64,000 bases of DNA from a phage, in the sequence record PZ027503.1; one strand, 5' to 3'. Shown piece by piece: positions 357-62,926 of the stretch. Numbering within the stretch: position 1 is the stretch's first letter; every line of letters starts with the position of its first letter. Below the pieces are notes generated by a model, which had not been told where the DNA came from, did not search any database, and saw only the letters and a list, made by a program, of their open reading frames with translations. A program made the translations under genes and the position numbers.

Positions 357-842
357 ATGTTTCAAGTAAATGTCAATGTGCATAATAGTTACTCTGATTG
401 TGAAACGTGTGGCTATAATTCATCTAATGTTATTCGTATTAGTGGCGATTTAGGAGAAGCTTCTTTTGGAGAAGAAGCAAGTTGCTTTAGTGGTATGGAT
501 GCAGAATGGAATGATATTGCACATTGGTTAGTGAGCAAACTAAAAGAAAAAGAGAAACCATTTCCTACTCTGCTTGATCGTTCTCTTGTGGAAGATGCAG
601 GTAAAGCATACGCAGACTATGCGTATGCAGACGGGAAATATTTGGAAGATGATAAGGCTAACCATTTGCTTTATGTTTACTATGAAGCTGAATCTGCCTA
701 CGATAATTATTACAGCATGTCTAACATCCTACGTCTGTTTGCAGAGTTTGATATTTATTTCGAAGTAGAATTTTCAGAAGATGATACTTACGAGTACAAT
801 TCTTATGATCCATTTGAGGAGGAAGAATGCCAAGACGAGTGA
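357..842 (+). CDS. strongly acidic D/E/Y-rich hypothetical protein (161 aa), coupled to Sir2 gene
   Basis: ORF track; AGGAGG 5 nt upstream; 16-nt overlap with downstream ORF. Confidence 0.6.
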   Translation: MFQVNVNVHNSYSDCETCGYNSSNVIRISGDLGEASFGEEASCFSGMDAEWNDIAHWLVSKLKEKEKPFPTLLDRSLVEDAGKAYADYAYADGKYLEDDKANHLLYVYYEAESAYDNYYSMSNILRLFAEFDIYFEVEFSEDDTYEYNSYDPFEEEECQDE

Positions 843-1642
843 TTTTTGTAAGCGGTGCAGGTTTAAGTGCAGACAGTGGGATTCGAACATTTAGAACAGA
901 CACAGATAGTGGTCGTGCTTTATGGGAAGAATATGATTTAGAAGAGGTCTGCGATATTGGAGCTTTCCAAGCAGGTTATCGTGTTAGAACATCTCCAGAT
1001 CTTCCAGTGGTCGGTGGTGTAGACGAGAACGGTATGGATTTGTATGCCAAAACACACGAATTTTATAACAAAAGACGTGTTGAGCTTAAAGATGTACAAC
1101 CTAATGCTGCACATATTCAAATAGCAAAGTGGTTTAAGGAATATCCTAACCAAATAGTAAACTTGACAACAAACGTTGATGATCTACTAGAGCGAGCAGG
1201 TGTAGACAGAGATTCTGTTATTCACGTACACGGCTATCTTCCTGAAGTAGTTTACCGTATGCATCCTGGAGATTACAAAACACTGGTAGATATTGGTTAC
1301 AATAGTATAAACATAGATGATTATAACTGGGTGAAGCCTAATGTTGTATTTTTTGGTGAGGCTGCACCTTTGTATGCAGATATGGCTCACTTGTTCGATA
1401 CTTTGACCATGCAAGATTTGGTTGTAGTAGTAGGATGTTCAAACCAAGTTATCAATTTTAATTGGGAATTATTTCCTGCACTTAGTATGGGTACAAAAAT
1501 GGTTGTAGTTAACCCTGGAGTTAATTACGAAGAAACACTTCTCTATGAAGATCGTGGAGTTTTTGTTTACCGAGAAAAAGCTGCAACAGCCTTCAGCAAT
1601 GAAGGTTTCATTAAAATGGTCGAAGACCACTTAAACAAATAA
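827..1642 (+). CDS. Sir2-family (sirtuin-like) NAD-dependent enzyme
   Basis: motifs GAGLSADSGIRTFR, TNVDDLLERAG, HVHG, VVFFGE, VVVGCS; no Zn-ribbon cysteines. Confidence 0.8.
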   Translation: MPRRVIFVSGAGLSADSGIRTFRTDTDSGRALWEEYDLEEVCDIGAFQAGYRVRTSPDLPVVGGVDENGMDLYAKTHEFYNKRRVELKDVQPNAAHIQIAKWFKEYPNQIVNLTTNVDDLLERAGVDRDSVIHVHGYLPEVVYRMHPGDYKTLVDIGYNSINIDDYNWVKPNVVFFGEAAPLYADMAHLFDTLTMQDLVVVVGCSNQVINFNWELFPALSMGTKMVVVNPGVNYEETLLYEDRGVFVYREKAATAFSNEGFIKMVEDHLNK

Positions 1643-8472: not shown

Positions 8473-9144
8473 CTATTTAATGTTAAGTCTGGCACACAAA
8501 CGAGAAACAGTTTTAGCATCCCATTTACCACCACGTGCTGTTGCTATTTTCTTACTGTTGAATTTTTCAGCAATAGTTTTGTAAGGTGTATTTAAATCTC
8601 TAAGGATCTCCAAACGTTCACGGAATGTCTCTGCAAAAGCATCTGCTTTAACAGAGTTGTATTCCATTTTTCCTTTTCTACGCGCAGCGGCAGTTTTAGG
8701 ATTAGCACTGCCTAATAAAACACCTTTGCTTTTTGCTACAGCAAGACCCTTTTTAATACGATCAGCAATACCTCTAACCTCTTGTTCAGCCAGAACAGAC
8801 AGAAGCTGTATAACCATTTTATCTGCATCTGGCATAATGGCTATCTTAACATCAATCATTTCTAGAAGAGTTGCTACGGAGGCGTTGTTACGACCCAAGC
8901 GGTCAACTTTAGCTACCAATAAAGTTGCTCCGGTAGCTTTACACATTTCAACCGCTTTAACCAGTTCCTTACGTTGCTTCCAATCGCCCTTACCCGAATA
9001 GTATTCAGAAAATTGACCAATAACTTCCGCATCAGGCACAGAGTCTAAGAAGTAACGGATATCGTTCTCTTGGCTCTCCATACCATATTGTGCCTCGCCT
9101 TTTTTCTGTTTAGAAAGACGACTGTAAACAACAAACTTTTTCAT
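8473..9144 (-). CDS. serine recombinase (resolvase/invertase family)
   Basis: VYSRLSKQ catalytic-Ser motif, VAKVDRLGRN motif, C-terminal HTH-like segment; AGGAG RBS; sigma70-like promoter upstream. Confidence 0.75.
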   Translation of the reverse strand: MKKFVVYSRLSKQKKGEAQYGMESQENDIRYFLDSVPDAEVIGQFSEYYSGKGDWKQRKELVKAVEMCKATGATLLVAKVDRLGRNNASVATLLEMIDVKIAIMPDADKMVIQLLSVLAEQEVRGIADRIKKGLAVAKSKGVLLGSANPKTAAARRKGKMEYNSVKADAFAETFRERLEILRDLNTPYKTIAEKFNSKKIATARGGKWDAKTVSRLCARLNIK

Positions 9145-9214
9145 AACCACTCCTAAACCATTGCTGTATTCTCACTTTACAAAATGAATAAACACTTGTC
9201 AAGGTATTTATTAT

Positions 9215-33303: not shown

Positions 33304-33552
33304 TCTTGACAAGCCCAGGGATCGGGCTTATACTGTTTTACATACAGAAGAGGAAGCGCCACCCCACGGCGTAAAGGCGGGGCTAACATACCAGGGCGCT
33401 GGTTGGAAGGTTGATCGCCGGTAGGCTGGGCGCTATATATTTGTAAAGAAATGTAAAGATAAAATAATCGCTTGCTTTCCTGGCTGGATCTGTTATTCTT
33501 ATTACATGGCGAGGGGACACGGGAGCGCGAGACAAACACCACCCCTGCGCGT

Positions 33553-33670
33553 CATTCTCTAGATGAGAATGATTATCATTCACCTTATTAAATAAGAATC
33601 AATCTCATTTATAAACTTAAATGCGAATCATTATCATTTGCATTTCCATATGAGAACTCTTCTCATTCTC
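33553..33670. promoter_or_regulatory. cluster of operator-like palindromes (TCATTCTC/GAGAATGA, GAATGATTATCATTC, GAATCATTATCATT)
   Basis: overlapping inverted repeats seen in sequence; same motif family as 20681 and 20863. Confidence 0.45.
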
Positions 33671-33686
33671 ACCTGCATAAATTTTT

Positions 33687-33863
33687 GTAAACTTTAAATT
33701 TTGCTTTTGTACTTTCATTTTTGTAAAAGCAAAAAAACTTTAAATACTGTGGGCGCGCAAAATTTTTAAAATTTTCCTTGACTTTTGAGTTTTGTTTTGT
33801 ATCTAACATTTTAAGATAATTTTCCTAAACTTTAAATTTTGGTTTTCAACTTTCACTTTTGTA
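33687..33863. repeat. two 39-bp direct repeats (35/39 identical) plus partial copies, iteron-like
   Basis: AAACTTTAAATTTTGCTTTTGTACTTTCATTTTTGTAAA at 33687 and 33825; AT-rich. Confidence 0.5.
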
Positions 33864-34024
33864 AATTCTTAAAAAGTTTAAATAATTTGAGGGATTTTTG
33901 AGATAATGGATAGTGGGAATTTGATATAACCTTTAATCTTATTAGTAGACCTTCAGGAACCCACTTAGATCGAATCCTAGTGATGCAAACTGAAAAAGAT
34001 AAGGGTTTGTATAGGACAAAATAA

Positions 34025-34055
34025 CAGGCTCTCTACGGTGCTGTAGGAGCCTTAT
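34025..34055. terminator. bidirectional terminator
   Basis: GGCTCTCTACGGTGCTGTAGGAGCC hairpin with T-rich flanks. Confidence 0.5.
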
Positions 34056-34107
34056 TTCTATGCTACAAAGTGACACCTTTGTTCTAAAAATGAAAAAAGT
34101 TAAAATA

Positions 34108-34650
34108 TCACAAATATCGTCTTTGCGGTATTTTGTCTGGGAAAAGTATTTCGATCAGTTTATTATGATATTTACCTAAAAGATTCTGCCCTTTCCAGGT
34201 GGCAGGGTTTAGCACCCCTGGTTCATACATCCCCATTCCAATTCCGTAAACCTTATCGTAGGGGCTTGCTTCAACAAACGTTTTGTATTGGTAAAGGTGT
34301 AAGTCTGCATACAAATCTGGATTCTGTACATATTTCAAGCATAAACCTCGCATAACAATACGCTCACGGTTCTCTTCCCATACGTTGTTATCAAAATCCG
34401 ACACTGCCCTACCCATACGTTTGTAATAAGCTTGGATCTTCTCATCTTTCCGTATCAAACTATGAGTCAGAATAGCCTGTGCAGTGTTGTGATCATTAAA
34501 AAGCAAAGCTTTACGCCACATCATGTATTGTTCGACACAATTAAATGTCTGATTGTAACCTGGTTCGGTTTCTGTAAAGGGTGCAATATACCAATTACTA
34601 AAAACATCTTTATGTGAAAAGAAGAATACATAATCATCAGTTATTCGCAT
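34108..34650 (-). CDS. NADAR (YbiA-like) domain protein
   Basis: FFFSHKDVFSNWYIAPF and CVEQYMMWRKALLF motifs typical of YbiA/NADAR. Confidence 0.75.
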   Translation of the reverse strand: MRITDDYVFFFSHKDVFSNWYIAPFTETEPGYNQTFNCVEQYMMWRKALLFNDHNTAQAILTHSLIRKDEKIQAYYKRMGRAVSDFDNNVWEENRERIVMRGLCLKYVQNPDLYADLHLYQYKTFVEASPYDKVYGIGMGMYEPGVLNPATWKGQNLLGKYHNKLIEILFPDKIPQRRYL

Positions 34651-34861
34651 TTTTCATACTCTCCAAAATTTCACGTTGCCCTTGCTGATAGGCTTTCATC
34701 AGAACTACTTTAAGGTTTGTCTCCAAGAGGTCTTCATTGTAATTATACCGCTCCACAACATATGTCAATTCATCATAAAGATCAAGAACGGGGTAGAATA
34801 CAGGGTTATCTGCTAAACGTGCCATAATTTCTCCTTTGTTAGTCCATCCACCAGTAGCCAT
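34637..34861 (-). CDS. hypothetical protein (74 aa)
   Basis: ORF track. Confidence 0.5.
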   Translation of the reverse strand: MATGGWTNKGEIMARLADNPVFYPVLDLYDELTYVVERYNYNEDLLETNLKVVLMKAYQQGQREILESMKNANN

Positions 34862-35204
34862 AAACTGCGTCTGCGTCGATGAGTTTGTGTTTGTTGTTTC
34901 GCATGTAGTCTAAGATAAGTAGACGTTTATTGTATCTGGAGAGATTATGACCCTCTTTTCCGCCATAGTCAAAATATTTTGCAAGATCTTTGCACTCAAA
35001 CAAAATTAGTTCGGGAGTTTCTTCACACTGGTCTGTCTGGTACACTTGACGAATGATCATGTATACATCATCGTCTTCCGCTAAATGCTCTACTGGTCCA
35101 CATCCAGCAGGAACAAATTCATAGTCCCATCTGATCAGATGTTTCTCTACTGCTTCAAAGAAGTCCATTCTTTCGTTGCGCATAATTTGAACGTCAACTA
35201 ACAT
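34839..35204 (-). CDS. hypothetical protein (121 aa)
   Basis: ORF track. Confidence 0.55.
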   Translation of the reverse strand: MLVDVQIMRNERMDFFEAVEKHLIRWDYEFVPAGCGPVEHLAEDDDVYMIIRQVYQTDQCEETPELILFECKDLAKYFDYGGKEGHNLSRYNKRLLILDYMRNNKHKLIDADAVYGYWWMD

Positions 35205-36205
35205 GTTTCCTCCTGTAATATTCCACCATAAAGTTTATAAATGTTTTGTATTGATGCCAGACAAGATAGCTCCACTGTTTCTGTGTAGCCGTCTGGCATA
35301 GCATATTTGCTCACTGCTTCTGTGTCTAACACCTTTTTGCAATACTTTTCTGAATTTTTGCACTGCTTCACAGTGGGGAACTGCCACACTTGAACTTGTC
35401 TCATAGTAAACACATTGCGGCTATTCTGTTCTTTGATACGGCGATCACTACTATTGGCAATACCAAACTTCAGTGCACAAAGAATACCATCTTCATCATA
35501 AATATGATTAATGTAACATTGTTGTTGGTTTTGGCCCCCGCACTGCGGACACCCACTCCCCTTATGTAGCAAACCATCTGCACGCCCTATCTGTTCCCCG
35601 TGCTCCTTACATCCATATTTAAACTTACCCATTGTTGAAGGTTTACCGATCCATCCTACCCATATATATCCTCTCCTTTCTACTTCCTTTCTTGTTCTAT
35701 AGGTGGTCTGATCCTCTGTGTATTTGTAACTTGTAGAACAGCGGCAAGGGAGACACCCACGTTTAAGATGACTTCCGGTAGCATAGAATTTACCATCACA
35801 CACCCCAGCTTCCACATATTCATCATGAGAGCAAACAGGACATTCAACCATCCATACTATATCACACCCTTTACGTTCCCCTGTATTGGTGAAAATAGTG
35901 CCTTCCTTAAATTTACCTACCTTCATAAAATCTTGTATGTGTTGCTGGTCTGGAATAGTGATAGCTTTGCTTCTCTTTTTCGAACGTTCCCTGTAGGCGC
36001 ACTTAGGACAACCTCGACCATCTTTAAAACTGTGAAACGTTGTAGTATTCCATTCATGACCATGCTCACAACGATTGATCATCTTCGTATGCACACCTTT
36101 ATCTTCTCCATACGTGCCGAGAATGGTAATCCCTTTAGCCTCAGCTATCGGCTTACATTCTTCCATATATGTTTCAATACTCTTCTTTACTGGCATATCT
36201 AACAA
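35198..36205 (-). CDS. protein with three zinc-ribbon repeats and C-terminal GIY-YIG/T5orf172-like segment (possible nuclease)
   Basis: three CxxHG...GxGCPxC repeats; C-terminal HIY...KFGIANSSDRRIKEQN. Confidence 0.5.
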   Translation of the reverse strand: MLDMPVKKSIETYMEECKPIAEAKGITILGTYGEDKGVHTKMINRCEHGHEWNTTTFHSFKDGRGCPKCAYRERSKKRSKAITIPDQQHIQDFMKVGKFKEGTIFTNTGERKGCDIVWMVECPVCSHDEYVEAGVCDGKFYATGSHLKRGCLPCRCSTSYKYTEDQTTYRTRKEVERRGYIWVGWIGKPSTMGKFKYGCKEHGEQIGRADGLLHKGSGCPQCGGQNQQQCYINHIYDEDGILCALKFGIANSSDRRIKEQNSRNVFTMRQVQVWQFPTVKQCKNSEKYCKKVLDTEAVSKYAMPDGYTETVELSCLASIQNIYKLYGGILQEETC

Positions 36206-36237: not shown

Positions 36238-36257
36238 AAAACCCGCCGAAGCGGGTT
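36238..36257 (-). terminator. intrinsic terminator or attenuator
   Basis: AAACCCGCCGAAGCGGGTTT hairpin, identical stem to 2286-2307. Confidence 0.45.
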
Positions 36258-36274
36258 TAGCTATTTGTGCTGTA

Positions 36275-52850: not shown

Positions 52851-53507
52851 ATGACTATTAAACATATCTCTTTTGATGTATGGAACACACTGATCACAGC
52901 AAACTCCAATTACGCAGATATGCGAGCCTGGACTATCGCAAAATATGGAGATATTACGGAAGTGGAAGCAAGAGCAGCTTATAAGAAGATCAAAAAGGAA
53001 CTGGATAATGCAGCACTTCAAGGCAAAGCTGAGTGTGCAGCATACGCCTGGGAAAGACTTGGTTCTGAACTTGGGATAACCCCTTGGAAGTCTGCAAAGC
53101 TTCGTTTCGAGTGTGAACAGTGGTTCCTTAAGTTTCCACCACACGTAGCCGTGGATCTGCCGATGTACTTGCTGTATCTTTCGGGGCGTTATGATTTGAG
53201 TATTAAGAGCAATACCAACTTCATATCAGGGGATATCCTGCGTCGTGCTTGTAAGTTTGATAGTTGGAATTGTTTTGAGTTCACCCATTTCTCGGATGAA
53301 GCTTTACTTTGTAAACCAGATCCGCGATTCTTTGCTCGCACGCTCACGTATTCTCCGATCCCTCTGTTAGGGCACGAAGTATTGCACGTAGGCGATAGTG
53401 AAGAATATGATGGAAAATGTGTTGACTTAGGATTTAACTTCTGTCATATTAAGAACCCTAACGACTTACTAGAGAAACTTAAAAGAGGAGAAATTGTAAA
53501 TGCGTAA
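52851..53507 (+). CDS. HAD-superfamily hydrolase
   Basis: motif I FDVWNTLI, motif III CKPDPRFF, motif IV HVGDSEEYD. Confidence 0.65.
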   Translation: MTIKHISFDVWNTLITANSNYADMRAWTIAKYGDITEVEARAAYKKIKKELDNAALQGKAECAAYAWERLGSELGITPWKSAKLRFECEQWFLKFPPHVAVDLPMYLLYLSGRYDLSIKSNTNFISGDILRRACKFDSWNCFEFTHFSDEALLCKPDPRFFARTLTYSPIPLLGHEVLHVGDSEEYDGKCVDLGFNFCHIKNPNDLLEKLKRGEIVNA

Positions 53508-54327
53508 TCAAACTCAAATTTTTGCAAATAAATTTGATGACCTGGAAACTGCTACTTTTGATATTAAAGATTATTCAAAATTGAAATTTGGTAGTAACCA
53601 GGCTGCGCGTCGTATGGGTAAAGAATTGGCACTTCAGTTTTTTGCTCAAGTGGCAATGGAACATATTGGGGAACAATTTGTTATCATCCCTTCTCCTTAC
53701 AACCATGTGCATAATGCTGCAACAATGATGACAGATCATTTTATTAATTACTTTAATATGTTGCAATCACAATATGATCAAGGTCGTTCAGCAGAACTGG
53801 ATATTATTCATCGTAAAGTTAGCTATATCAACGATTATGGTTTCTTGGATAAAGCTAGTCGTAAGAAACTTATTGATGGGGATACATTCTACTGCAACAA
53901 AGAATTCTGGGGTGATAAGAAGCTTGTGTTTATTGATGATGTAAATATCACTGGAACTCATGAAGACAAACTGATTGAGATCCTTGATGAAAATCAAGTT
54001 AAAAATGATGTTTACTTCTTGTATTTTGCAAAATATGAAGGTAATCAAGCAGATACCGAAGCTAAACTGAATTTTAACTACATTAAGACACCAGAAGCGT
54101 TTGTTAAAATGATTAATGAAGAACGTGATGCACAGTGCCTTGTTCGTCCTATTAAGTATCTTATGGGCCAAAATCACGAAGACTTCAAAATCATTCTTAG
54201 CCAATTGCCACACTACTATGTAGAGCAACTTTTCTTCGGATGCTTGGGAGAAGGTTACAACCGAATTTCAAAGTATGCTGAAAACTTTGAATTCTTGGAT
54301 CGTTACACAAAACAACACATTCTGTAA
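53500..54327 (+). CDS. phosphoribosyltransferase (type I PRTase fold) family protein
   Basis: PRPP-binding loop LVFIDDVNITGTH. Confidence 0.65.
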   Translation: MRNQTQIFANKFDDLETATFDIKDYSKLKFGSNQAARRMGKELALQFFAQVAMEHIGEQFVIIPSPYNHVHNAATMMTDHFINYFNMLQSQYDQGRSAELDIIHRKVSYINDYGFLDKASRKKLIDGDTFYCNKEFWGDKKLVFIDDVNITGTHEDKLIEILDENQVKNDVYFLYFAKYEGNQADTEAKLNFNYIKTPEAFVKMINEERDAQCLVRPIKYLMGQNHEDFKIILSQLPHYYVEQLFFGCLGEGYNRISKYAENFEFLDRYTKQHIL

Positions 54328-54339
54328 TAAGGAGCTAAA

Positions 54340-54813
54340 ATGCTTAAAATGAAAACAGGTAATCTTATTGATGCCGCTAAAGCAGGTGAAGTAACTGTTA
54401 TTGCTCATTGTTGCAACTGTATGTGTAATATGGGGGCAGGTATTGCCCCACAAATCAAACAAGCATTTCCTTACGCATATGCAGCAGACTTAGACACAAT
54501 GGCTGGTGATCAAAGTAAACTAGGTTGTTTTAGTTTAGGGGTGCCAGACGAACAATCAGACCCTTTGGTATATAATCTATACGGGCAATACCGTTACGGA
54601 TACAATGCTAAAGGTCGTCAGTTGGACTATGATGCACTTTACGATGCACTAATAGCTATGGCTAATGATTTGCTTCTCCGTGACCAAAAATGTAAGATCG
54701 GCTTACCTATGATTGGCGCTGGATATGCTGGAGGTAATTGGGCTATCATCCAAGTGATGATTGAAGAAACTTTAGTAAAAACAGGTCACGATGTGACTAT
54801 TTATAAACTTTAA
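54340..54813 (+). CDS. macro-domain protein (ADP-ribose binding/processing)
   Basis: VIAHCCNCMCNMGAGIA and KIGLPMIGAGYAGG motifs. Confidence 0.7.
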   Translation: MLKMKTGNLIDAAKAGEVTVIAHCCNCMCNMGAGIAPQIKQAFPYAYAADLDTMAGDQSKLGCFSLGVPDEQSDPLVYNLYGQYRYGYNAKGRQLDYDALYDALIAMANDLLLRDQKCKIGLPMIGAGYAGGNWAIIQVMIEETLVKTGHDVTIYKL

Positions 54814-54825
54814 GAGGAGATTAGT

Positions 54826-55047
54826 ATGGGTGTTTTTGCAGGTATTGTTGCAGTGGTAAGCTTTTTTGTTATTGCTTTTATGCTTAGTTTGATTCCAGCT
54901 TGGTTACTGTTGCTGGCTTACAACTATGTTGCTGAAGTTATGGGTCATGCAGATATCACTGTCCCAGTAACCTTCTGGACCGTGGTTTGTGTTTCGTTTA
55001 TTCTGGCTGTATTACGAGGAATCTTTTCCTCTCATTCAACAAAATAA
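54826..55047 (+). CDS. small membrane protein (73 aa)
   Basis: ORF track; two TM helices. Confidence 0.5.
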   Translation: MGVFAGIVAVVSFFVIAFMLSLIPAWLLLLAYNYVAEVMGHADITVPVTFWTVVCVSFILAVLRGIFSSHSTK

Positions 55048-55050
55048 GTG

Positions 55051-55109
55051 TTGACATAGTTCTTAAAAAGAGTAAGATATATCACATGAAGCGGGGAATA
55101 GTTCCCCGC
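55051..55109 (+). promoter_or_regulatory. promoter plus 5' stem-loop cassette (same family as island cassettes, plus orientation)
   Basis: TTGACA-N16-TAAGAT, then hairpin GCGGGGAATAGTTCCCCGC, then GAGAGGAG RBS. Confidence 0.6.
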
Positions 55110-55126
55110 AAAGAGAGGAGAAAAGA

Positions 55127-56101
55127 ATGCAACTTGGTTTCCCAATTATTGATGTAGTTGTTTTAGTTGGTATTTTAGCATTGTCTATTGGTATCGATTT
55201 CTTTGGTCATAAAGAGAATAAAGAAATTGGAATTAAATCTGCTTTGCTTTGGTCTGTTTTTTGGATTGCTTTAGCTTTAGGATATTACGCATTCATTTGG
55301 GTAGAACATGGTAAAGAGTTTGCCGCGCTTTTCCTAAGTGGCTATGTGTTGGAAAAGAGTCTTTCTGTAGATAACCTGATGGTGTTCATGGCGATTTTTG
55401 CAAGCTTTGGAATTAAGAGCACACATCTCCAACATAAGATTCTACTTTGGGGGATTGCAGGAGCCATTGTCTTCCGAGGTATTTTTGTTGCAGCAGGGAC
55501 CGCTTTGTTTAACCTTCATTGGTCGGTCCAAGTGTTGTTCGGTTTGATTGTAGCTTGGTCTGCCGTGGCTATCATCAAAGGTGGTGACGAAGAAGAGGAT
55601 ATTGATTACTCTAAACATTGGGCTGTTCGTTTAGTAGGTAAAGTTCTGCCTGTGCACAATGCACTAGATGGTGAAAAGTTCATTACCATTAAGAATGGTA
55701 TTAAATATGCAACTCCTGCTCTTCTTTGTGTGTTTGTTATTGAGCTTACAGATATTGTCTTCTCTTTTGATTCAGTTCCGGCTGTGATCGGTGTGACACA
55801 AGAACCTCTGCTAGTTTATTCTGCAATGCTGATGGCTGTTCTTGGTTTACGTGCACTTTTCTTTGTGTTAAGTGTAGCTGTGAAATATCTGGTTCACTTA
55901 GAGAAAGCTGTTGCTGTGGTTCTGGTGTTTGTCGGTGCTAAACTTATGTATCACCCGTTCGGTGAAACACTTCATGCCAAGTGGTCATTCCTCCCGCATG
56001 ATATTTCCCCTAACGTAAGTCTGATGATTGTTCTAGGCACATTAGCTCTTGGTGTTATTGCAAGCTTTATCTTCCCTGAAAAAGAAGAAGCTGCTATTTA
56101 A
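55127..56101 (+). CDS. TerC-family integral membrane protein
   Basis: multi-TM; duplicated signature VLEKSLSVDNLMVF and IELTDIVFSFDSVPAV. Confidence 0.8.
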   Translation: MQLGFPIIDVVVLVGILALSIGIDFFGHKENKEIGIKSALLWSVFWIALALGYYAFIWVEHGKEFAALFLSGYVLEKSLSVDNLMVFMAIFASFGIKSTHLQHKILLWGIAGAIVFRGIFVAAGTALFNLHWSVQVLFGLIVAWSAVAIIKGGDEEEDIDYSKHWAVRLVGKVLPVHNALDGEKFITIKNGIKYATPALLCVFVIELTDIVFSFDSVPAVIGVTQEPLLVYSAMLMAVLGLRALFFVLSVAVKYLVHLEKAVAVVLVFVGAKLMYHPFGETLHAKWSFLPHDISPNVSLMIVLGTLALGVIASFIFPEKEEAAI

Positions 56102-56107
56102 TAGATG

Positions 56108-56130
56108 AGCCTCCTTCGGGAGGCTATTTT
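56108..56130 (+). terminator. rho-independent terminator
   Basis: AGCCTCCTTCGGGAGGCT hairpin then ATTTTAT. Confidence 0.6.
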
Positions 56131-56143
56131 ATAGGAGAGACTT

Positions 56144-56494
56144 ATGAATAATTTTGATGAAATTCAAGAACTTGTTTGGGATTTGCCTGGTGATGTGGAT
56201 TACATTTCAGATTATCTTTCAAAAGTTTACCCTGGGGTAAGCGTTATGATTGTGACCAAAGATCCGATTAATTTGCCTCCTAATGTGGTAGCTTGTTGTG
56301 GAAGTGGTTCAGGAGAAGTAGAGCCTGTATCTCGTTGGGAATTAACTAAAGCTGTTTCAAAACGAAACGGTGAAGTTTTGAATATTGATATTGAACAAAT
56401 ATGGACTTCTCCAGCAGCCAAATGGAATGATCCGAATGGTTGGGATTTGTTCTTCTGGGATAATGAAACTGATGATGAGGTATTTTTAAAATGA
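56144..56494 (+). CDS. hypothetical protein (116 aa)
   Basis: ORF track. Confidence 0.55.
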   Translation: MNNFDEIQELVWDLPGDVDYISDYLSKVYPGVSVMIVTKDPINLPPNVVACCGSGSGEVEPVSRWELTKAVSKRNGEVLNIDIEQIWTSPAAKWNDPNGWDLFFWDNETDDEVFLK

Positions 56495-56736
56495 AATACT
56501 TGTTGGTTGTGTTTGAAAATATCTGTTTTGCAATAGGGTTGTTTGTTGTAATTTTTGTATTGACAAGCGTAATCAACGGCAGTAAAGTGAGTTTATACCG
56601 AGATGGAGAGCAACTTTATTGCTTCTCTGGAGATTTCAAACACAGATGTATTAATAGCCAAAACGAGGAAAGCAAATATGAAAAAACTAGCCCTGATTTT
56701 AATTGGTTGTATCTTTTTAACAGCTTGCGAGGATGA
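56491..56736 (+). CDS. small membrane protein (81 aa)
   Basis: ORF track; overlaps start of next gene, end uncertain. Confidence 0.4.
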   Translation: MKYLLVVFENICFAIGLFVVIFVLTSVINGSKVSLYRDGEQLYCFSGDFKHRCINSQNEESKYEKTSPDFNWLYLFNSLRG

Positions 56737-57115
56737 AACAAATCCTGCACAATACCAACAACCTCCTCAACAATACGCTCAACAAAGATCTGACGGAGAT
56801 ACAACTATTATCAACAATGGTGGCGGTTCTAGTAGTAGCGGTGTTGGTGAGTTTGCTACAGGTATGTTGTTAGGGCATATGATGAGTGGCGGTAGTAATC
56901 GTAGCAGTGGGGATTATAACGATAACAGAACGATTATTAATAAGCATTATAATACACCTAAACCGAAAACTAATTTTTATGGTAAGCCTAAACAAGAGAT
57001 AAAAACTTATGAAAAGCCGAGACAAACTTTTAAAACAAATAGTAGCTATACAACTCGTAAATCTTACAATAGCCCTTTAAGTAAAAAGAGTTCATCTCGT
57101 AGCAAGCGACGTTAA
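56678..57115 (+). CDS. lipoprotein (145 aa), Q/P/G/S-rich
   Basis: ORF track frame; start MKKLALILIGCIFLTAC (lipobox) after GAGGAAAG RBS. Confidence 0.55.
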   Translation: MKKLALILIGCIFLTACEDETNPAQYQQPPQQYAQQRSDGDTTIINNGGGSSSSGVGEFATGMLLGHMMSGGSNRSSGDYNDNRTIINKHYNTPKPKTNFYGKPKQEIKTYEKPRQTFKTNSSYTTRKSYNSPLSKKSSSRSKRR

Positions 57116-57129
57116 TAAGGAGAAAAACA

Positions 57130-57723
57130 ATGACAATTTCTATCCGTACTTCCATTACAGGTGTTAAAAGTTTGCCTAATGCTTTGCAAATTACACGCGC
57201 TTTGAGGGATACGTTCTCTGCTGTGGATGAGCATAAGATGCTCGATAATCTCTCAAATTGGCCCTATTTTCATTATTTTAAAAATGAAGACGACGAGTTT
57301 ATAGATGCTGTTTCTTATGGTTATGATTTCGGTAAGGAGGTTTCTCCTGAAGAATTTGTAGCTACGGTATTTCCAAATGGTTTTCCTACTCGCAATAAGC
57401 GTAAAAAAGGACCAAAAAACAAGAAACGTGCTACTAATAAAGCTACCATTTTCTTTACTGATGGGACACAGTATACGATTAAAGATTTTGAAGAAGTATC
57501 TTATACAGCAGGTGGGAATCTTTCTTTCTACACCATCAAAAAACAAAACTATACGTTCAGCCATGTTTCTAACATGATTGAAATGTTAGTAGAAGATATT
57601 GAAAGCGTGGCTGTGTTAGGTATGCATAAAAGCTTTTTAATTACAAATATTTCAGATTTCAGTGCAAGTTTATCTGGCCCTGATTTTGAAGCCACGACCA
57701 CGCATTTCGCTTTTAAGGTGTAA
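57130..57723 (+). CDS. hypothetical protein (197 aa)
   Basis: ORF track. Confidence 0.55.
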   Translation: MTISIRTSITGVKSLPNALQITRALRDTFSAVDEHKMLDNLSNWPYFHYFKNEDDEFIDAVSYGYDFGKEVSPEEFVATVFPNGFPTRNKRKKGPKNKKRATNKATIFFTDGTQYTIKDFEEVSYTAGGNLSFYTIKKQNYTFSHVSNMIEMLVEDIESVAVLGMHKSFLITNISDFSASLSGPDFEATTTHFAFKV

Positions 57724-57725
57724 GT

Positions 57726-58316
57726 ATGCATACCGAGAGAGACTTGCAACTCTTGTGGTGGGAAGTGATGCAGGAAATAAAAGAAGATTTTCCTGTTTAC
57801 TACAACATGTTACGTGAAGCAGGATATAAAGCTTGTGTTAGAAACAAAGTGAATAACTCTTTCGGTTGGTGCAACTACCGAGATAAAATTGTTGTTGTAA
57901 ATTGGCACTTGCATAAGAACTCTACAAGAGATATGATCGTGGATACAATGAAGCACGAAATTGCTCACGCTATTGATGGTTGTATGGGTAAGTTTAGTAG
58001 GCACGGTGCTCATTGGCAAAAACTGGCAGCAGAGTTAGGGGCTAATCCTAAAGCCACTTCCAAAGAGCCGTTGAACCACGAGTATAAATATGTTCTTGTT
58101 CTGGTAGATAGGTTTGCGACAAGATGTGTTAGAGGTTATAATCGTAAACCTAATCGCATGTACCCAGGCAAGCAACCTAACATGTGGTTGAAATCAGATA
58201 AAGAAGGAACTGAAGGAAAATTATGGTTGTATAAATGGGATGATTGGGTTAAAGTAGCTAAAGAGTACGGTGTTTCACCATATATAAGAGATGCAGAAGA
58301 GGAGAATGAAGAATGA
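57726..58316 (+). CDS. SprT-like zinc metalloprotease domain protein
   Basis: HEIAHAIDG ... HGAHW motifs. Confidence 0.6.
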   Translation: MHTERDLQLLWWEVMQEIKEDFPVYYNMLREAGYKACVRNKVNNSFGWCNYRDKIVVVNWHLHKNSTRDMIVDTMKHEIAHAIDGCMGKFSRHGAHWQKLAAELGANPKATSKEPLNHEYKYVLVLVDRFATRCVRGYNRKPNRMYPGKQPNMWLKSDKEGTEGKLWLYKWDDWVKVAKEYGVSPYIRDAEEENEE

Positions 58317-59425
58317 CAAGTCCATTTTTAAAAGTAGCTACTGGTGGTCAGAAGAAGTCTGAAATGAGTGTATTCGCTGCAACAACAGATGCAAGTAAAT
58401 CTGTATTCGCTCCAAGCGTGTTAGATGCCAGTCCTGTTTATGCACCAGCGGCACCGCAAGAAGTTCCAGTTTTGCCTTCTATGACCCGACAAGAGATTGA
58501 AGAGATTGGGGCAGAGGCAGGAACAACCTTGCGTTCCTTGAATGCCGAGGTGTTAAAACATCAACGTAGTAATCAAGGCGATCAGATGAGTGAACGACTT
58601 ACAGCTTTGATTAAACAGGCAAAACAACTTGATCCAAACTCTATTAAACAAAGCAAGGGTATTACTAAACTCATTAAAAAAGTTATGGGTATGAAAGAAG
58701 ACCTGTTCGGGGAGTTTGATAATGTTAATAACCGTATTGAAGAGTTGGTAAAGAACCTTCAAATGGATATTCGCAAAGAAGAAGATTCCTTGGTATATCT
58801 TGAAAAGCTACATCAAGCTATTGGACAATATGCTGCAAGTTTGAACCGAGATATGCAGCTTCTAACAGCAACCTATGAAAAAGAAGAACAAGCTTTGGCT
58901 GCTCTTCCAGAAGATGCAGTAGAACAGCGACAAGTGATCCGAGATACTTTGGATCTTCTGGAGATTCGTATTGCAGATTTAAAAGCATTGCGCCTACTGT
59001 GTGTCCAAATGGGACCGCGTGTACAAGGTATGCAAAAAGTTTCTGCAAGCTTAATGCGATCTGCGCGTAACATAGTAAATAATGTTATTCCTGCTTACTC
59101 TGCTAACTTCTCAATGTATATCGAGAGCTTACGTCAAATGAAAGCAGCAGAGACGCAGAATAACGTTCTTGATGAATTTAACCTGGCAATTAAACTGGGT
59201 AGCGATCTTGCCACACAGAATCAGATCGAAGCAGCAGCACTGGCTAACCGTCAAGTGTTGGATATTGAAACTCTGCGTCACGATCAGGAAAACTTGGTTA
59301 AGATGCTGGAAGAAACTAACCGCATCAATACGGAAGCCCGTGCTGCTCGTGTTGATTATATTAATGAAGTTCAATCTCTGGAAGACGGGATGGTAGCTGC
59401 TGTGAAACGAGGGCTTGGTAAATGA
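58313..59425 (+). CDS. alpha-helical/coiled-coil protein (370 aa), possibly TelA-like
   Basis: ORF track; TelA suggestion from size and Ter context only. Confidence 0.5.
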   Translation: MTSPFLKVATGGQKKSEMSVFAATTDASKSVFAPSVLDASPVYAPAAPQEVPVLPSMTRQEIEEIGAEAGTTLRSLNAEVLKHQRSNQGDQMSERLTALIKQAKQLDPNSIKQSKGITKLIKKVMGMKEDLFGEFDNVNNRIEELVKNLQMDIRKEEDSLVYLEKLHQAIGQYAASLNRDMQLLTATYEKEEQALAALPEDAVEQRQVIRDTLDLLEIRIADLKALRLLCVQMGPRVQGMQKVSASLMRSARNIVNNVIPAYSANFSMYIESLRQMKAAETQNNVLDEFNLAIKLGSDLATQNQIEAAALANRQVLDIETLRHDQENLVKMLEETNRINTEARAARVDYINEVQSLEDGMVAAVKRGLGK

Positions 59426-59619
59426 GAATCCGTATCTATATAATTGATGAAGACATTGGTGTCCGTTATGATGACGAAAAACGATTCGCACCGATGGGAG
59501 GCATATATCCCCCAAGTGTTCTAGCAGTTTGTCGTGATTGTTATATTTATGAAGGTTGTCGTAACTTCCGTAAATTCGAACTCCTTGCAGATATTGACTT
59601 CAATGAGGAGGAGGAGTAA
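59422..59619 (+). CDS. hypothetical protein (65 aa)
   Basis: ORF track. Confidence 0.5.
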   Translation: MRIRIYIIDEDIGVRYDDEKRFAPMGGIYPPSVLAVCRDCYIYEGCRNFRKFELLADIDFNEEEE

Positions 59620-59791
59620 TGAAAATATTACGGGTGAATATTGAAACTGCTTGGTGTGGATGCAATGAGGTTGTGGATATCGAAATTGAAGATGATATGT
59701 CTCAAGAGGATATAGAAGATCTTGCACACGAAACCTTTCAGGATTATTGTAATTACGGGTTCCATATTTTAGAGGAGGAAGAAGATGTATA
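59619..59791 (+). CDS. small acidic protein (57 aa)
   Basis: hand-translated MKILRVNIETAWCGCNEVVDIEIEDDMSQEDIEDLAHETFQDYCNYGFHILEEEEDV. Confidence 0.4.
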
Positions 59792-60183
59792 ATCCAACAG
59801 GTATTCTTTTAAAACTTACAGTAACAGACCCTACTCTTTTCACTAATTTGGCAAGTGGTGAAGTTTATGAAGTAATGAAAGATGATGACGGTTGGTGTTA
59901 TCTTTGTGGCTACTTCCTCTGTGATGCAGAAGAGTTAGAATCCATTATAACTAAAGGTTTTTATGAAGAACCAGGGTTCCGTGTGGAAACTACGCAGAAA
60001 CCTGATACCATTACGTTGACTCGACAGGAACTGATCACAATCATTGAAGATGCTTTTATAGATGGCTGGAATACACAAGATAATGACTGGGGTGGACCCG
60101 AAGCTTTTCTGGAACATCATAAAGCTTATGGAGAATTTTGTGAAACCACTGTAGCTCTTGATAATCTGAAGGAGGGTTTGTAA
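59785..60183 (+). CDS. hypothetical protein (132 aa)
   Basis: ORF track. Confidence 0.55.
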   Translation: MYNPTGILLKLTVTDPTLFTNLASGEVYEVMKDDDGWCYLCGYFLCDAEELESIITKGFYEEPGFRVETTQKPDTITLTRQELITIIEDAFIDGWNTQDNDWGGPEAFLEHHKAYGEFCETTVALDNLKEGL

Positions 60184-60746
60184 TGGGTTGTTTTAGCTTT
60201 TTGTGCAAAGAATCGGGCAAAGCTGCCCTTTCTACTTCTTTCGACGGATCACCTTGCTACCTCTTTCTTTTGAAGGACGGTGTTGTTATTGAAGAGATGT
60301 ATGGCAACTATGATAGTTATGGTTGTGTTTTCTCTGGAAAGGAGGATGAAAATGGTGTTCGTGAACGATTTGAATGGGCTATGGATTGGAGTAAGGTTTG
60401 TGATTTGATGCATTCCTCAAATCCAAGGGACGGTATCGCTATGGTGCTGGAAGAGTACTTTACAGGTGAAATCCCTACAGAACAATCTGACGGAGATCCT
60501 AACCAAGGTTGGGGTGATGGTGAAGAAGATCCAGATTGTTTTTTCAGCACAGAAAAGAATAAGTTTAAACGTGTTGACAACCCTTATCACAAAGTGCATA
60601 ATACTCTCATTGAAACAGAAGATGACAAGATGGAAATTGAAGAAGATGATCCTCTTGTAACACTTCCTATAAGTGAGTTACAAAAGATCACTAAGGAAGC
60701 TTACGATTTGGGCTTCAAAATTGGTAGAGGAGGTATGCGTGTTTAG
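60183..60746 (+). CDS. hypothetical protein (187 aa)
   Basis: ORF track. Confidence 0.55.
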   Translation: MGCFSFLCKESGKAALSTSFDGSPCYLFLLKDGVVIEEMYGNYDSYGCVFSGKEDENGVRERFEWAMDWSKVCDLMHSSNPRDGIAMVLEEYFTGEIPTEQSDGDPNQGWGDGEEDPDCFFSTEKNKFKRVDNPYHKVHNTLIETEDDKMEIEEDDPLVTLPISELQKITKEAYDLGFKIGRGGMRV

Positions 60747-61017
60747 ATTCAATATTCAAGAAGAAAAAAGTCAGGATTTACCTATTGCTTTCGAAGATCT
60801 TGACGTAGGGGCCACATTCATGTATTATGATGCCTATGAAGACGCAGGGTTGGATACCTACCGTAACTTGGTGTTCATTAAAAATTCCACAAACAGTGCG
60901 ATTTGTATTAATGGATCACTAGCACAACGAGGCTATACTCATTGCATCCCACCAGATACAAATATGGTGGAAGTAGATTTAGAAGTTACCAATATTACAC
61001 TTAAGAAGGAGAAATAA
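60739..61017 (+). CDS. paralog family D member (92 aa, GTG start)
   Basis: ORF track frame; start set by alignment to 62039 paralog and GGAGG RBS. Confidence 0.45.
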   Translation: MFRFNIQEEKSQDLPIAFEDLDVGATFMYYDAYEDAGLDTYRNLVFIKNSTNSAICINGSLAQRGYTHCIPPDTNMVEVDLEVTNITLKKEK

Positions 61018-61018
61018 T

Positions 61019-61813
61019 ATGTCCGAGAAAATCAGCCTGAAAAAACGTCAAGAAAACCTTGCTTTCTCTCTGAAAAAGAATAAGAACCTGAATGAAGGTA
61101 AGATTGTTCTTCGTGTAGCATGTGCTCTAGATATTTCTGGTAGTATGCATGGTCTATATTCTAGTGGGGTAGTGAGTGATTTTGTAGGTAAACTGCTTCC
61201 TTTTGGTATGCTGTTCGACGATAATCAACAAATTGATATGTGGGCCTTCAATACGAGTTCCCAAGAGCTTACTCCAGCAACAGCAGACGTTTACGATGAC
61301 TATGTTGGTAAATGTATGCGCAATGTTCGTATCGGAGGTGGAACAAATTACGCCCCTGTAATGGCAGATATCTACGATGAGTATTTTGGCACTGTTACCA
61401 AATATATTACCACTAAACAAGTGGTACAAGAGGAGGCTCCAAAGAAAGGCTTCTTTAATCGTCTGCTTGGTAAAACTGAAACAGTGTCTGTAGAGCGTGA
61501 AAAAGTTGTAGCTGTATCTGAACCAGGTGCTGACGTTACCCCTGGTGTTGTATTCTTCCAGACGGATGGTGAGAATGGTGATCCTAGTGCTGTTCGTCGT
61601 CTTATTGAAGAGAATAAGAATAAACCTATTTATTGGTTCATGGTTGGCGTTGGTAATGAGAAGTTTGGCTTCCTGAAAGAACTGGCAAATGCTTATGATA
61701 ATGTTGGTTTTATTGGCATTAAAGATTTAGACTTGACAGATTCAGAGCTTTATGACAAACTTTTATCTGAAGAGTTCGGAGAGTGGGTTGTTAAAGTAGG
61801 TGCTAAAAAATGA
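61019..61813 (+). CDS. vWA-domain protein with KISLKK N-terminus
   Basis: MIDAS-like DISGSM motif. Confidence 0.65.
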   Translation: MSEKISLKKRQENLAFSLKKNKNLNEGKIVLRVACALDISGSMHGLYSSGVVSDFVGKLLPFGMLFDDNQQIDMWAFNTSSQELTPATADVYDDYVGKCMRNVRIGGGTNYAPVMADIYDEYFGTVTKYITTKQVVQEEAPKKGFFNRLLGKTETVSVEREKVVAVSEPGADVTPGVVFFQTDGENGDPSAVRRLIEENKNKPIYWFMVGVGNEKFGFLKELANAYDNVGFIGIKDLDLTDSELYDKLLSEEFGEWVVKVGAKK

Positions 61814-62058
61814 TCGACAAGCTTGCCTCTCAAGTCGTAGAAAATTATTGGCGCGAGAGAGAAGCTTTCATTATGCGCAGTCTCAAAGAGTATTTCATTG
61901 GGACTGTGCGAATGGAAGATATTGTAAGTAGAGTAGAGATTCATGTATGGCCCGATTATGAAGAATGGGTTGACAAAGAAAATGAAAATGCTATAATTCT
62001 TCGTATATACAAACCGGAGATAACATTAGGAGGAAGAAGTGTTAAACTTCGAAATTGA
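61810..62058 (+). CDS. hypothetical protein (82 aa)
   Basis: ORF track. Confidence 0.5.
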   Translation: MIDKLASQVVENYWREREAFIMRSLKEYFIGTVRMEDIVSRVEIHVWPDYEEWVDKENENAIILRIYKPEITLGGRSVKLRN

Positions 62059-62308
62059 TGAGCAAAAAGTAAATAAACGATGCCTTACCATTAAAGATTT
62101 GGATGTAGGAGATACTTTCGTCTATGAAAATGCATTTGATGAAAATGGTTTAGACCTTAGTGAAATCATTGTTTATTTAAAAGTAGACGATGGGGAGAAT
62201 GATTATTCCGCTGTAGAACTAAACCATCATGCACAATTAGTATCAATCCAAAACACATCTAAGCTTTTGGAAGTAGAATTGACTGTAACTGGTATTACAC
62301 TTAAATAA
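62039..62308 (+). CDS. paralog family D member (89 aa, GTG start)
   Basis: ORF track; LDVGDTF(V/M)Y motif shared with 60739. Confidence 0.5.
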   Translation: MLNFEIDEQKVNKRCLTIKDLDVGDTFVYENAFDENGLDLSEIIVYLKVDDGENDYSAVELNHHAQLVSIQNTSKLLEVELTVTGITLK

Positions 62309-62323
62309 TAGAGGAGACAAAAG

Positions 62324-62926
62324 ATGACTGATAAAATTTCCCTGAAAAAAGGCTCTAGCGAAAAAATTTCCCTGAAGAAAGTTGCTCCGGCTCTGAAAGA
62401 ACTGCGCCTGGAATTCTCTTGGAAATCTGATTCTAAACTGGATCTGGATGTAAGTGCACTGGTTTGTCGTCATAATGCCGCTGGCAATCCTGAAATGCTG
62501 TCTGCACGTCATCTGGTTTGCTACGCTAACAAGTTTGATCCTGAACGTTCTACCTTCGCTGGTGACGATGTTCGTGATGGGACTGGCAGCATGGAGCAGA
62601 TTGATATTACTCTGGCTAAAATTTCTCCTGATGCACAAGAGATTGCCTTTGTTCTGACCATTGATGATGATACAGGTCTGAAACGTTTTGGTCATGCTTC
62701 TGAAGGTATGCTTAAAATCTTTGACTCCGAACGCAATGTGGAAATTCTGGATTTTGACTTCCTGGCTCCTGAAGTAGCTGGTAACACAATCTGCCACGTG
62801 GCTTCCTTGGTTCGTGAAGATGGGGAATGGAAGCTGAAAGCATATGGTGTAGGTAAAGCTGGTCTGGATATTTGCGATGTGGTGATGGCCTTCGGTGGTA
62901 AAAAAGAATGGTATGAATGTCCATAA
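62324..62926 (+). CDS. TerD-family protein
   Basis: 200 aa; duplicated KISLKK N-terminus, LDLDVSALV, EIAFVLTID, C-terminal GEWKLKAYGVG. Confidence 0.7.
   Translation: MTDKISLKKGSSEKISLKKVAPALKELRLEFSWKSDSKLDLDVSALVCRHNAAGNPEMLSARHLVCYANKFDPERSTFAGDDVRDGTGSMEQIDITLAKISPDAQEIAFVLTIDDDTGLKRFGHASEGMLKIFDSERNVEILDFDFLAPEVAGNTICHVASLVREDGEWKLKAYGVGKAGLDICDVVMAFGGKKEWYECP

Follow-up and report, generated by a model that had tools for sequence, protein, structure and literature searches.

We analyzed a 64,000-nucleotide stretch of phage DNA (sequence record PZ027503.1; hereafter the window) with a focus on a gene located at 34108..34650 on its minus strand. The gene is an ATG-initiated open reading frame (ORF) of 180 amino acids (the end coordinate includes the stop codon) and codes for a NADAR-domain protein, referred to below as the window NADAR. 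Sequence comparisons and a structural model indicate that this protein is probably (we put the probability at about 0.72) an AdfN^Bas60-type ADP-ribosyl N-glycohydrolase that would counter the DarTG1 defense by stripping ADP-ribose (ADPr) from DNA guanine; the narrower prediction, that it is an active NADAR ADP-ribosyl N-glycohydrolase, can be made with greater confidence. A sequence-only reading of the same DNA had recognized a NADAR (YbiA-like) domain here and considered guanine de-ADP-ribosylation, as a counter-defense against DarT1-type toxins, plausible. The domain assignment was borne out by profile searches, modeling and active-site comparison, and the suggested function gained support from homology, including a syntenic ortholog with 59% identity, AdfN^Bas60.

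The Window Gene Encodes a Stand-Alone NADAR-Fold Protein

Pfam searches matched the window NADAR to PF08719 NADAR (DUF1768/COG3236) with E = 7.8e-36 and a score of 124.2 bits (gathering cutoff, 35.1), the alignment spanning positions 3-154 of the 163 in the profile. The TIGR02464 (ribofla_fusion) profile also scored above its cutoff (113.1 versus 73.7 bits), and the matching PHROG family was phrog_1017 (E = 7.5e-52). An AlphaFold2 model built with 49 homologs had a mean predicted local distance difference test score (pLDDT) of 95.2 and a predicted template modeling score of 0.88. The model consists of β-strands at residues 7-10, 25-29 and 32-36, five helices, a further strand at residues 124-127, and a C-terminal helix, and it displays the α-helical core flanked by two small β-sheets that characterizes the YbiA-like fold. 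When compared with the PDB using Foldseek, it produced just two significant matches, both NADAR structures: the Phytophthora nicotianae NADAR with ADP-ribose (PnNADAR; 8BAU, E = 1.8e-9, template modeling (TM) score 0.79, 29% identity) and E. coli YbiA (2B3W, E = 1.3e-6, TM score 0.68). We conclude that the window protein is a stand-alone, single-domain member of the NADAR superfamily, having the superfamily profile, the fold and the catalytic Glu/Lys residues. A profile search of the six-frame translation of the window did not find a second NADAR.

An assignment to the NADAR anti-phage protein DS32_2 (NCBIfam NF053876) was rejected, with a score of 17.4 bits against a cutoff of 240. PADLOC returned solely the candidate-system model PDC-M42C (121 bits), a match that is uninformative on function because AdfN^Bas60 fits that model equally well.

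Predicted Active Site

Contacts of PnNADAR with ADP-ribose, and mutagenesis of the E. coli C7 DarG1 antitoxin, were described by Schuller et al. 2023 (PMC11543638). We mapped these residues onto the window NADAR through a phmmer alignment to 8BAU; as residue indices in the 8BAU chain are higher by two than those in the paper, the PnNADAR numbers given here are those corrected for this offset in the present analysis. Eight of the 11 ADP-ribose-contacting or catalytic residues are identical: E43, K50, K75, R79, W89, R93, E125 and D130 of PnNADAR correspond to E40, K47, K77, R81, W91, R95, E127 and D132 of the window protein, respectively. At two further positions an aromatic residue is kept (Y84 to F86 and W133 to Y135), and one residue is changed (D86 to N88). 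On this basis, E40, K47 and E127 are the predicted active-site residues, and K77, R81, F86, W91, R95, D132 and Y135 are the predicted ADP-ribose contacts.

E40 and K47 lie in the motif EQYMMWRK, and E127 lies in the motif FVEASPYD. The catalytic Glu and Lys of NADARs are seven residues apart (E43/K50 in PnNADAR, E88/K95 in E. coli C7, E36/K43 in T4), as are E40 and K47 here. Both residues are invariant in an alignment that includes AdfN^Bas60, a Vequintavirinae NADAR, bacterial NADARs, YbiA and T4 gp30.3 (AdfN), and alanine mutants at the corresponding T4 AdfN residues, E36 and K43, lose anti-DarTG1 activity. Among the 49 homologs, E40, K47, K77, W91, E127 and D132 are all invariant. The third catalytic position is known to sort NADAR subfamilies: it is Glu in YbiA and stand-alone proteins, Asp in the antitoxins that are linked to DarT1, and His in the phage NADARs of the T4-like type (PMC11543638). 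In the window NADAR it is Glu (E127), a state that is shared by the YbiA family and stand-alone NADARs at the position of PnNADAR E125 and does not discriminate between them. The window protein begins at the first core strand (MRITDDYVFFF) and carries no N-terminal extension of the DarG1 type.

Orthology to AdfN^Bas60

Across the 4.5 kb that surrounds the gene, identity is 98.4% with Escherichia phage PNJ1809-36 and 91-97% with Mt1B1_P17, tuntematon and phAPEC8; on these values, the window belongs to a Phapecoctavirus (phAPEC8-like, Stephanstirmvirinae), a lytic myovirus of ~150 kb. A tblastn search detected NADAR homologs in 719 phage records, 71 of which (Phapecoctavirus) code for proteins with at least 80% identity to the window NADAR. 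A second group, with ~59% identity, includes phage JohannJBalmer, which is Bas62 of the BASEL collection; the Bas62-type allele is present in 56 records at an identity of at least 95%. Bas60-62 are phi92-like phages, placed by current taxonomy in Justusliebigvirus, the sister genus to Phapecoctavirus within Stephanstirmvirinae.

The product of bas60_0111 (QXV83846.1) of phage PaulScherrer (Bas60) is 59% identical to the window NADAR over 172 amino acids (E = 2e-69) and 98.4% identical to the Bas62 protein. By tblastn, bas60_0111 is the sole NADAR locus of the Bas60 genome. The flanking genes are also related, the ATPase being 64% and the 88-amino-acid protein 92% identical to those at the Bas60-type locus, and in both phages the order is ATPase, endonuclease-like gene, NADAR, a gap of ~800 bp and the oppositely oriented 88-amino-acid gene (the same order was seen in Mt1B1_P17, Bas60 and Bas62). 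In a neighbor-joining tree, the window clade and the AdfN^Bas60 clade are sisters, the NADARs of Vequintavirinae fall into a clade of their own, and the outgroup positions are taken by YbiA and T4 AdfN, the latter being the most distant. Among cellular homologs, stand-alone bacterial NADARs come nearest, with 42-48% identity. Judged by sequence and gene order, the window NADAR is the syntenic ortholog of AdfN^Bas60.

The two proteins are similar in length (180 amino acids here versus 183 in AdfN^Bas60, which is near-identical in Bas61 and Bas62), both are single-domain, and they have in common the MRITD N terminus, the EQYMMWRK and FVEASPYD motifs, the genomic position and the viral subfamily. 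They differ at 41% of residues, and the loop between strands (residues 27-35) is seven amino acids shorter in the window NADAR. In Justusliebigvirus a single endonuclease-like gene directly adjoins the NADAR gene, whereas two extra small ORFs lie between them in the window phage. Nei-Gojobori dN/dS ratios of the window gene to same-genus orthologs were 0.047-0.060; this is, therefore, a constrained coding gene under strong purifying selection.

Relation to Other Characterized NADARs

PnNADAR, the best structural match, is a stand-alone protein like the window NADAR and has a Glu-type residue (E125) at the position of E127. It differs in being eukaryotic and in having an N-terminal segment and an internal insertion of its own, and it has no known role against DarT1. 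E. coli YbiA shares the core fold, the Glu-type signature and the TIGR02464 match with the window NADAR; in contrast, it is only 30% identical, is an outgroup in the tree, and is the product of a chromosomal housekeeping gene in a LexA-controlled (dinG/ybiB) neighborhood. Membership of YbiA sensu stricto was rejected on the grounds of this identity and tree position, and of the lack of a RibA/RibD domain or neighbor.

AdfN^T4 (gp30.3) belongs to the same superfamily and has the same proposed role, that of an orphan antitoxin-like factor against DarTG1, its E36/K43 pair being equivalent to E40/K47 here. It is, however, just 18% identical to the window NADAR, and the conserved Glu is replaced by His in T4-type NADARs. 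AdfN^T4 does not neutralize DarT1 outside T-even infection (PMC11825919), and the T4 NADAR is unable to remove ADPr from cytosine (C-ADPr; PMC12945103). It represents a separate acquisition, nearest to DarG1. Assignment of the window protein to the T4-like "phage NADAR" family was rejected, as E127 is kept rather than replaced by His, identity is 18%, and T4 AdfN is the most distant protein in the tree.

DarG1 proteins (the BC4488 subfamily; E. coli C7, Geobacter lovleyi) have the same fold and the same guanine-ADPr chemistry that is proposed here. Equivalents of DarG1 E88 and K95 are present in the window NADAR, and the equivalent of K115, which is needed for rescue from toxicity, is K77. Three DarG1 features have no counterpart: the adjacent DarT gene, the basic N-terminal β-β-α extension and Asp at the third catalytic position (D171 in E. 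coli C7). Given the lack of a DarT neighbor, the Glu in place of Asp, the missing extension and a different clade, membership of the DarG1 antitoxins was rejected.

Proposed Role against DarTG1

When expressed in uninfected E. coli, AdfN^Bas60 neutralizes DarT1 (Johannesman, Carlson, LeRoux, Nat Commun 2025, PMC11825919). The same study reported that RB69, T5 and Bas25 regain full titer on DarTG1 hosts when it is present, and that T5 gains nothing from it on a DarTG2 host (PMC11825919). Hydrolysis of guanine-ADPr by NADARs is likewise published chemistry, PnNADAR being a case in point (PMC11543638). We infer the same activity and role for the window NADAR, across the 41% divergence that separates it from AdfN^Bas60. 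AdfN proteins are phage-borne and lack a cognate DarT, and the window NADAR is such an orphan within the 64 kb analyzed: no ADP-ribosyltransferase (ART) or DarT gene was found near it in the window, the neighbors being an ATPase, an endonuclease-like protein and small ORFs.

A sequence of events can be proposed. The block in which the gene is situated runs leftward and consists of small genes, as is typical of early or host-takeover regions; this arrangement would be consistent with early expression. An E. coli host carrying DarTG1 would sense the infection, and DarT1 would ADP-ribosylate the N2 of guanine in single-stranded (replicating) phage DNA, halting phage replication. The phage NADAR would then bind the ADP-ribose, with K47, R81, W91, R95 and D132 holding the diphosphate and adenine and with E40 and E127 flanking the distal ribose, and would hydrolyze the N-glycosidic bond between ribose and guanine, so that ADP-ribose is released, the base is restored and replication proceeds. 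Because the target is the lesion and not the toxin, such an enzyme should work against any guanine-directed DNA ADP-ribosyltransferase, and not against the thymine-directed DarT2.

Several considerations weigh against this assignment. The AdfN^Bas60 that was tested is probably, rather than certainly, bas60_0111, the sole NADAR locus that tblastn detects in that genome. An identity of 59% leaves room for a shift in specificity. E. coli YbiA and T4 gp30.3 both hydrolyze ADPr-guanine (G-ADPr) in vitro, yet do not rescue E. coli from DarT1 toxicity (PMC11125620); hence guanine-ADPr hydrolysis in vitro is no guarantee of protection in the cell. AdfN^Bas60 was tested by ectopic expression only, and no knockout in the native phage was found in the literature, so its native role is itself deduced. 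Finally, the window NADAR has the Glu (E127) of stand-alone proteins and YbiA, as opposed to the Asp of DarT1-linked antitoxins, and lacks their N-terminal DNA-binding extension.

The phage orphan NADAR class (AdfN), its mechanism and the 59%-identical ortholog are all known already from work published in 2023-2025, and AdfN proteins are known in T4-like, T5-like and phi92-like phages. The window protein is thus an additional member of the AdfN class and opens no new biological question. Therapy or biocontrol is a prospective use for several of these phages, and probable resistance to DarTG1 helps predict their host range.

Alternative Explanations

Other functions can be envisaged for a protein of this family. 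It could be a broad nucleic-acid de-ADP-ribosylase, whose main substrates are other base-ADPr adducts (cytidine- or guanosine-ADPr, in DNA or RNA) that arise from ADP-ribosyltransferases other than DarT (pierisin/ScARP-like, YarT-like or toxin-delivered ARTs), with DarT1 reversal as one activity or a minor one. Enzymes of the stand-alone NADAR and YbiA families act on C-ADPr as well as G-ADPr, in DNA and in RNA, while DarG1- and T4-type proteins remove only G-ADPr (PMC12945103), and reversal of guanosine-ADPr on RNA is an activity of all the NADARs tested (PMC11833690). The Glu-type E127 and the stand-alone bacterial NADARs that are the nearest cellular relatives (42-48% identity) speak for such breadth, which is plausible from the active site and would extend the anti-DarTG1 explanation rather than exclude it. 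Yet the closest characterized homolog blocks DarTG1, and no E. coli anti-phage system that ADP-ribosylates cytosine or RNA guanine was found in the literature surveyed; we therefore consider it unlikely that other adducts are the main substrates. A role in scavenging soluble ADPr-derived signals or toxins (for example, of the cyclic ADP-ribose Thoeris/TIR type), in which the NADAR would cleave their N-glycosidic bonds and so dampen NAD-derived signaling instead of repairing DNA, appears improbable. Hydrolysis of soluble ADPr signals was proposed in 2022 on contextual grounds (PMC9503650), and the absence of the basic N-terminal extension, which has been proposed to bind single-stranded DNA in DarT1-linked NADARs, would fit it. 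That proposal predates the biochemistry, however, and no experimental support for it was found in the literature surveyed; the NADARs tested to date all act on ADPr attached to nucleic-acid bases (PMC11125620, PMC12945103, PMC11833690), AdfN^Bas60 functions without an N-terminal extension, and Pfam and PHROG searches revealed no SLOG, Nudix or TIR-related neighbor at the NADAR locus.

It is very unlikely that the protein is a housekeeping YbiA-type N-glycosidase that destroys reactive riboflavin-pathway intermediates (5-amino-6-ribosylaminouracil phosphates), even though its TIGR02464 score (113 bits versus the cutoff of 73.7) and the Glu-type signature in common with YbiA point that way, as do the GenBank names "riboflavin biosynthesis intermediates N-glycosidase", "YbiA-like N-glycosidase" and "GTP cyclohydrolase II". 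Identity to YbiA is 30%, compared with 59% to AdfN^Bas60 and 42-48% to stand-alone bacterial NADARs; a phmmer search of the PDB reached PnNADAR (E = 3.8e-15) but not YbiA 2B3W at E ≤ 0.01; YbiA is an outgroup in the tree; Pfam shows no GTP cyclohydrolase II domain; and there are no riboflavin genes nearby, nor an evident need for flavin damage control in a lytic phage. Least to be expected, in our view, is a non-enzymatic inhibitor, in which the NADAR fold would serve as an ADP-ribose- or protein-binding module that blocks an NAD-consuming defense such as a retron effector. The sole basis for this idea is a phage NADAR-like inhibitor of Retron-Eco1 that Carabias and coworkers reportedly described in 2024, as related by a citing paper. 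All catalytic residues of the window NADAR are conserved under strong purifying selection, as expected of an enzyme, and its closest characterized relative counters DarT1, an activity that the family performs enzymatically (catalytic mutants were studied for T4 AdfN, not for AdfN^Bas60). The anti-DarTG1 ADP-ribosyl N-glycohydrolase remains our preferred explanation.

Sir2 and Macrodomain Proteins of the Window

The sequence-only reading had pointed to two further domains, a Sir2 at 827 and a macro domain at 54340, and had called the resulting collection of NAD- and ADP-ribose-processing domains unusually complete. Both domains exist. The Sir2-family protein (271 amino acids; 827-1642, plus strand) scored 80.5 bits with Pfam SIR2 and did not match any PADLOC defense model; a 161-amino-acid ORF that lies upstream and overlaps it (357-842) had no Pfam match. 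The macrodomain protein (157 amino acids; 54340-54813, plus strand) gave a borderline Pfam score (22.4 bits; cutoff, 22), but its identity was confirmed by a match to the PADLOC DarG model (E = 4.1e-10) and by matches to TARG1/DarG-type macrodomain structures in the PDB (5E3B, 4J5R, 5M31). It shares 36% identity (E = 1e-20) with T4 Tk.4/AdfM, which has been reported as the anti-DarTG2 factor of T4 (2025 preprint). The macrodomain protein is, therefore, a candidate thymine-ADPr hydrolase and anti-DarTG2 gene product, and the phage may counter both DarTG types. Possible resistance to DarTG2 through this AdfM-like protein would likewise help predict host range.

The completeness of the set, in contrast, was not upheld. 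The Sir2 gene is ~33 kb and the macrodomain gene ~20 kb away from the NADAR gene, in different transcription blocks, and no NAD-salvage gene was found among window ORFs of at least 170 amino acids. According to a survey, 27% of myoviruses carry a NADAR, and in DNA viruses the NADAR, Macro, SLOG and Nudix domains are found together above chance (PMC9503650), which makes the Sir2/NADAR/macro set, of a kind common in large myoviruses, typical rather than unusual. A functional NAD/ADPr module of the three proteins was rejected, since they are 20-33 kb apart in unrelated contexts, on different strands or in different blocks, and since the macrodomain gene is part of a Ter-type cluster.

The latter ("tellurite resistance"-like) cluster occupies 52851-62926 on the plus strand and comprises genes for a HAD hydrolase (52851-53507), a ComF-like PRTase_3 (53500-54327), TerC (55127-56101), an SprT-like protein (57726-58316), TelA (58313-59425), a vWA-TerF-like protein (61019-61813) and TerD (62324-62926), the macrodomain gene being located between those for the ComF-like PRTase and TerC. 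This combination presumably resembles predicted Ter systems that deal with nucleoside-like metabolites.

It is possible, though we lean against it, that the Glu-type NADAR removes ADPr from both guanine and cytosine, in DNA as well as RNA, as stand-alone NADAR and YbiA-family enzymes do and DarG1 and T4 AdfN do not, and that, alongside a thymine-ADPr-targeting AdfM-like macrodomain of the DarG/TARG1 type (54340-54813), it would make up a lesion-directed repair kit for G, C and T. If so, phAPEC8-like phages would be protected against ADP-ribosyltransferase defenses beyond DarTG1, including ones as yet undescribed in E. coli.

Gene Neighborhood

Direct reading of the sequence upstream of the NADAR gene (translation initiation region, 34651..34667, minus strand) revealed a GGAG Shine-Dalgarno motif ~10 nt from the ATG. 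The annotated start is further supported by the MRITD N terminus that the window NADAR shares with its Bas60 and Bas62 orthologs. The start overlaps the stop of an upstream 74-amino-acid ORF (34637-34861, minus strand) by 14 nt, which suggests translational coupling. Next come, on the same strand, an ORF of 121 amino acids (34839-35204) and a gene for a 335-amino-acid CapR-domain/zinc-finger endonuclease-like protein (35198-36205), assigned through Pfam CapR (83 bits), a weak treble-clef zinc-finger match and PHROG endonuclease and HNH families. These three genes (34637..36205) run in the same direction with overlapping stops and starts, and the NADAR gene is the fourth and last of the series. 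A strong hairpin terminator-like site (36258..36239) lies upstream of the four-gene block; thus, by this arrangement, the NADAR gene and the three genes before it probably form a single transcription unit that starts after the terminator at 36239-36258. Promoter-like sites at the locus were not enriched over shuffled sequence. On a larger scale, the gene is inside a long leftward block of mostly small genes without known function, and the window shows negative GC skew between ~2 kb and ~40 kb. The upstream genes are described here as context alone, and no functional link to the NADAR is claimed. The endonuclease-like gene may code for a homing-type endonuclease adjoining the NADAR gene; in relatives, the gene at this position is longer (390 amino acids in Bas62 and 467 in Bas60).

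The other side of the NADAR gene is bordered by an ORF-poor gap of ~800 bp (33304-34107), which separates it from the convergent 88-amino-acid gene. Within the gap, palindromic operator-like units such as GAATGATtATCATTC and ATGAGAAgaGTTCTCAT recur every 29 nt in an array (33560-33667). The unit at 33565-33583 fits the E. coli Fur-box consensus with three mismatches; a match also arose in 4 of 100 shuffles. There are also two AT-rich direct repeats of 72 nt (33680-33751 and 33818-33889) that are 82% identical to each other. No Rfam or tRNA match indicative of a structured RNA or tRNA was obtained within the gap. A gap of equal size is present at the same position in Bas60 and Bas62, and the tuntematon record labels the region merely "repeat_region". 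It may be a regulatory or origin-like region.

Annotation of Orthologs and Other Observations

Orthologs of the window NADAR are labeled "GTP cyclohydrolase II" in, for example, NC_052662.1 (gp037), PQ571289.1, PQ571307.1 and OR525700.1, and "DNA methyltransferase" in PQ529420.1; both names look like errors of annotation carry-over. The label GTP cyclohydrolase II (used in Mt1B1_P17, EF1-1, SF1-1 and others) was rejected, as Pfam gives NADAR only. The note in the Mt1B1_P17 record reads "Uncharacterized domain COG3236 / GTP cyclohydrolase II", and the name is most likely a carry-over from COG3236 fusion proteins. In all, ~70 phAPEC8-like and ~56 phi92-like records carry the gene as "hypothetical protein", "GTP cyclohydrolase II" or "YbiA-like N-glycosidase"; more than 120 records could reasonably be re-labeled as AdfN-type NADAR (predicted DNA guanine ADP-ribosylglycohydrolase, anti-DarTG1).

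Host labels look doubtful for five "Campylobacter phage" records (host C. jejuni; MG065639, MG065645, MG065650, MG065656 and MG065689) and for "Acinetobacter phage vB_AbaM_ABPW7", all of which share 92-99% identity with E. coli Stephanstirmvirinae at the NADAR locus. Elsewhere in the window, a 225-amino-acid ORF with a GTG start (8473-9150, minus strand) matches the N-terminal domain of serine recombinases/resolvases (Pfam Resolvase, 65.9 bits), in a genome that is otherwise that of a lytic myovirus.

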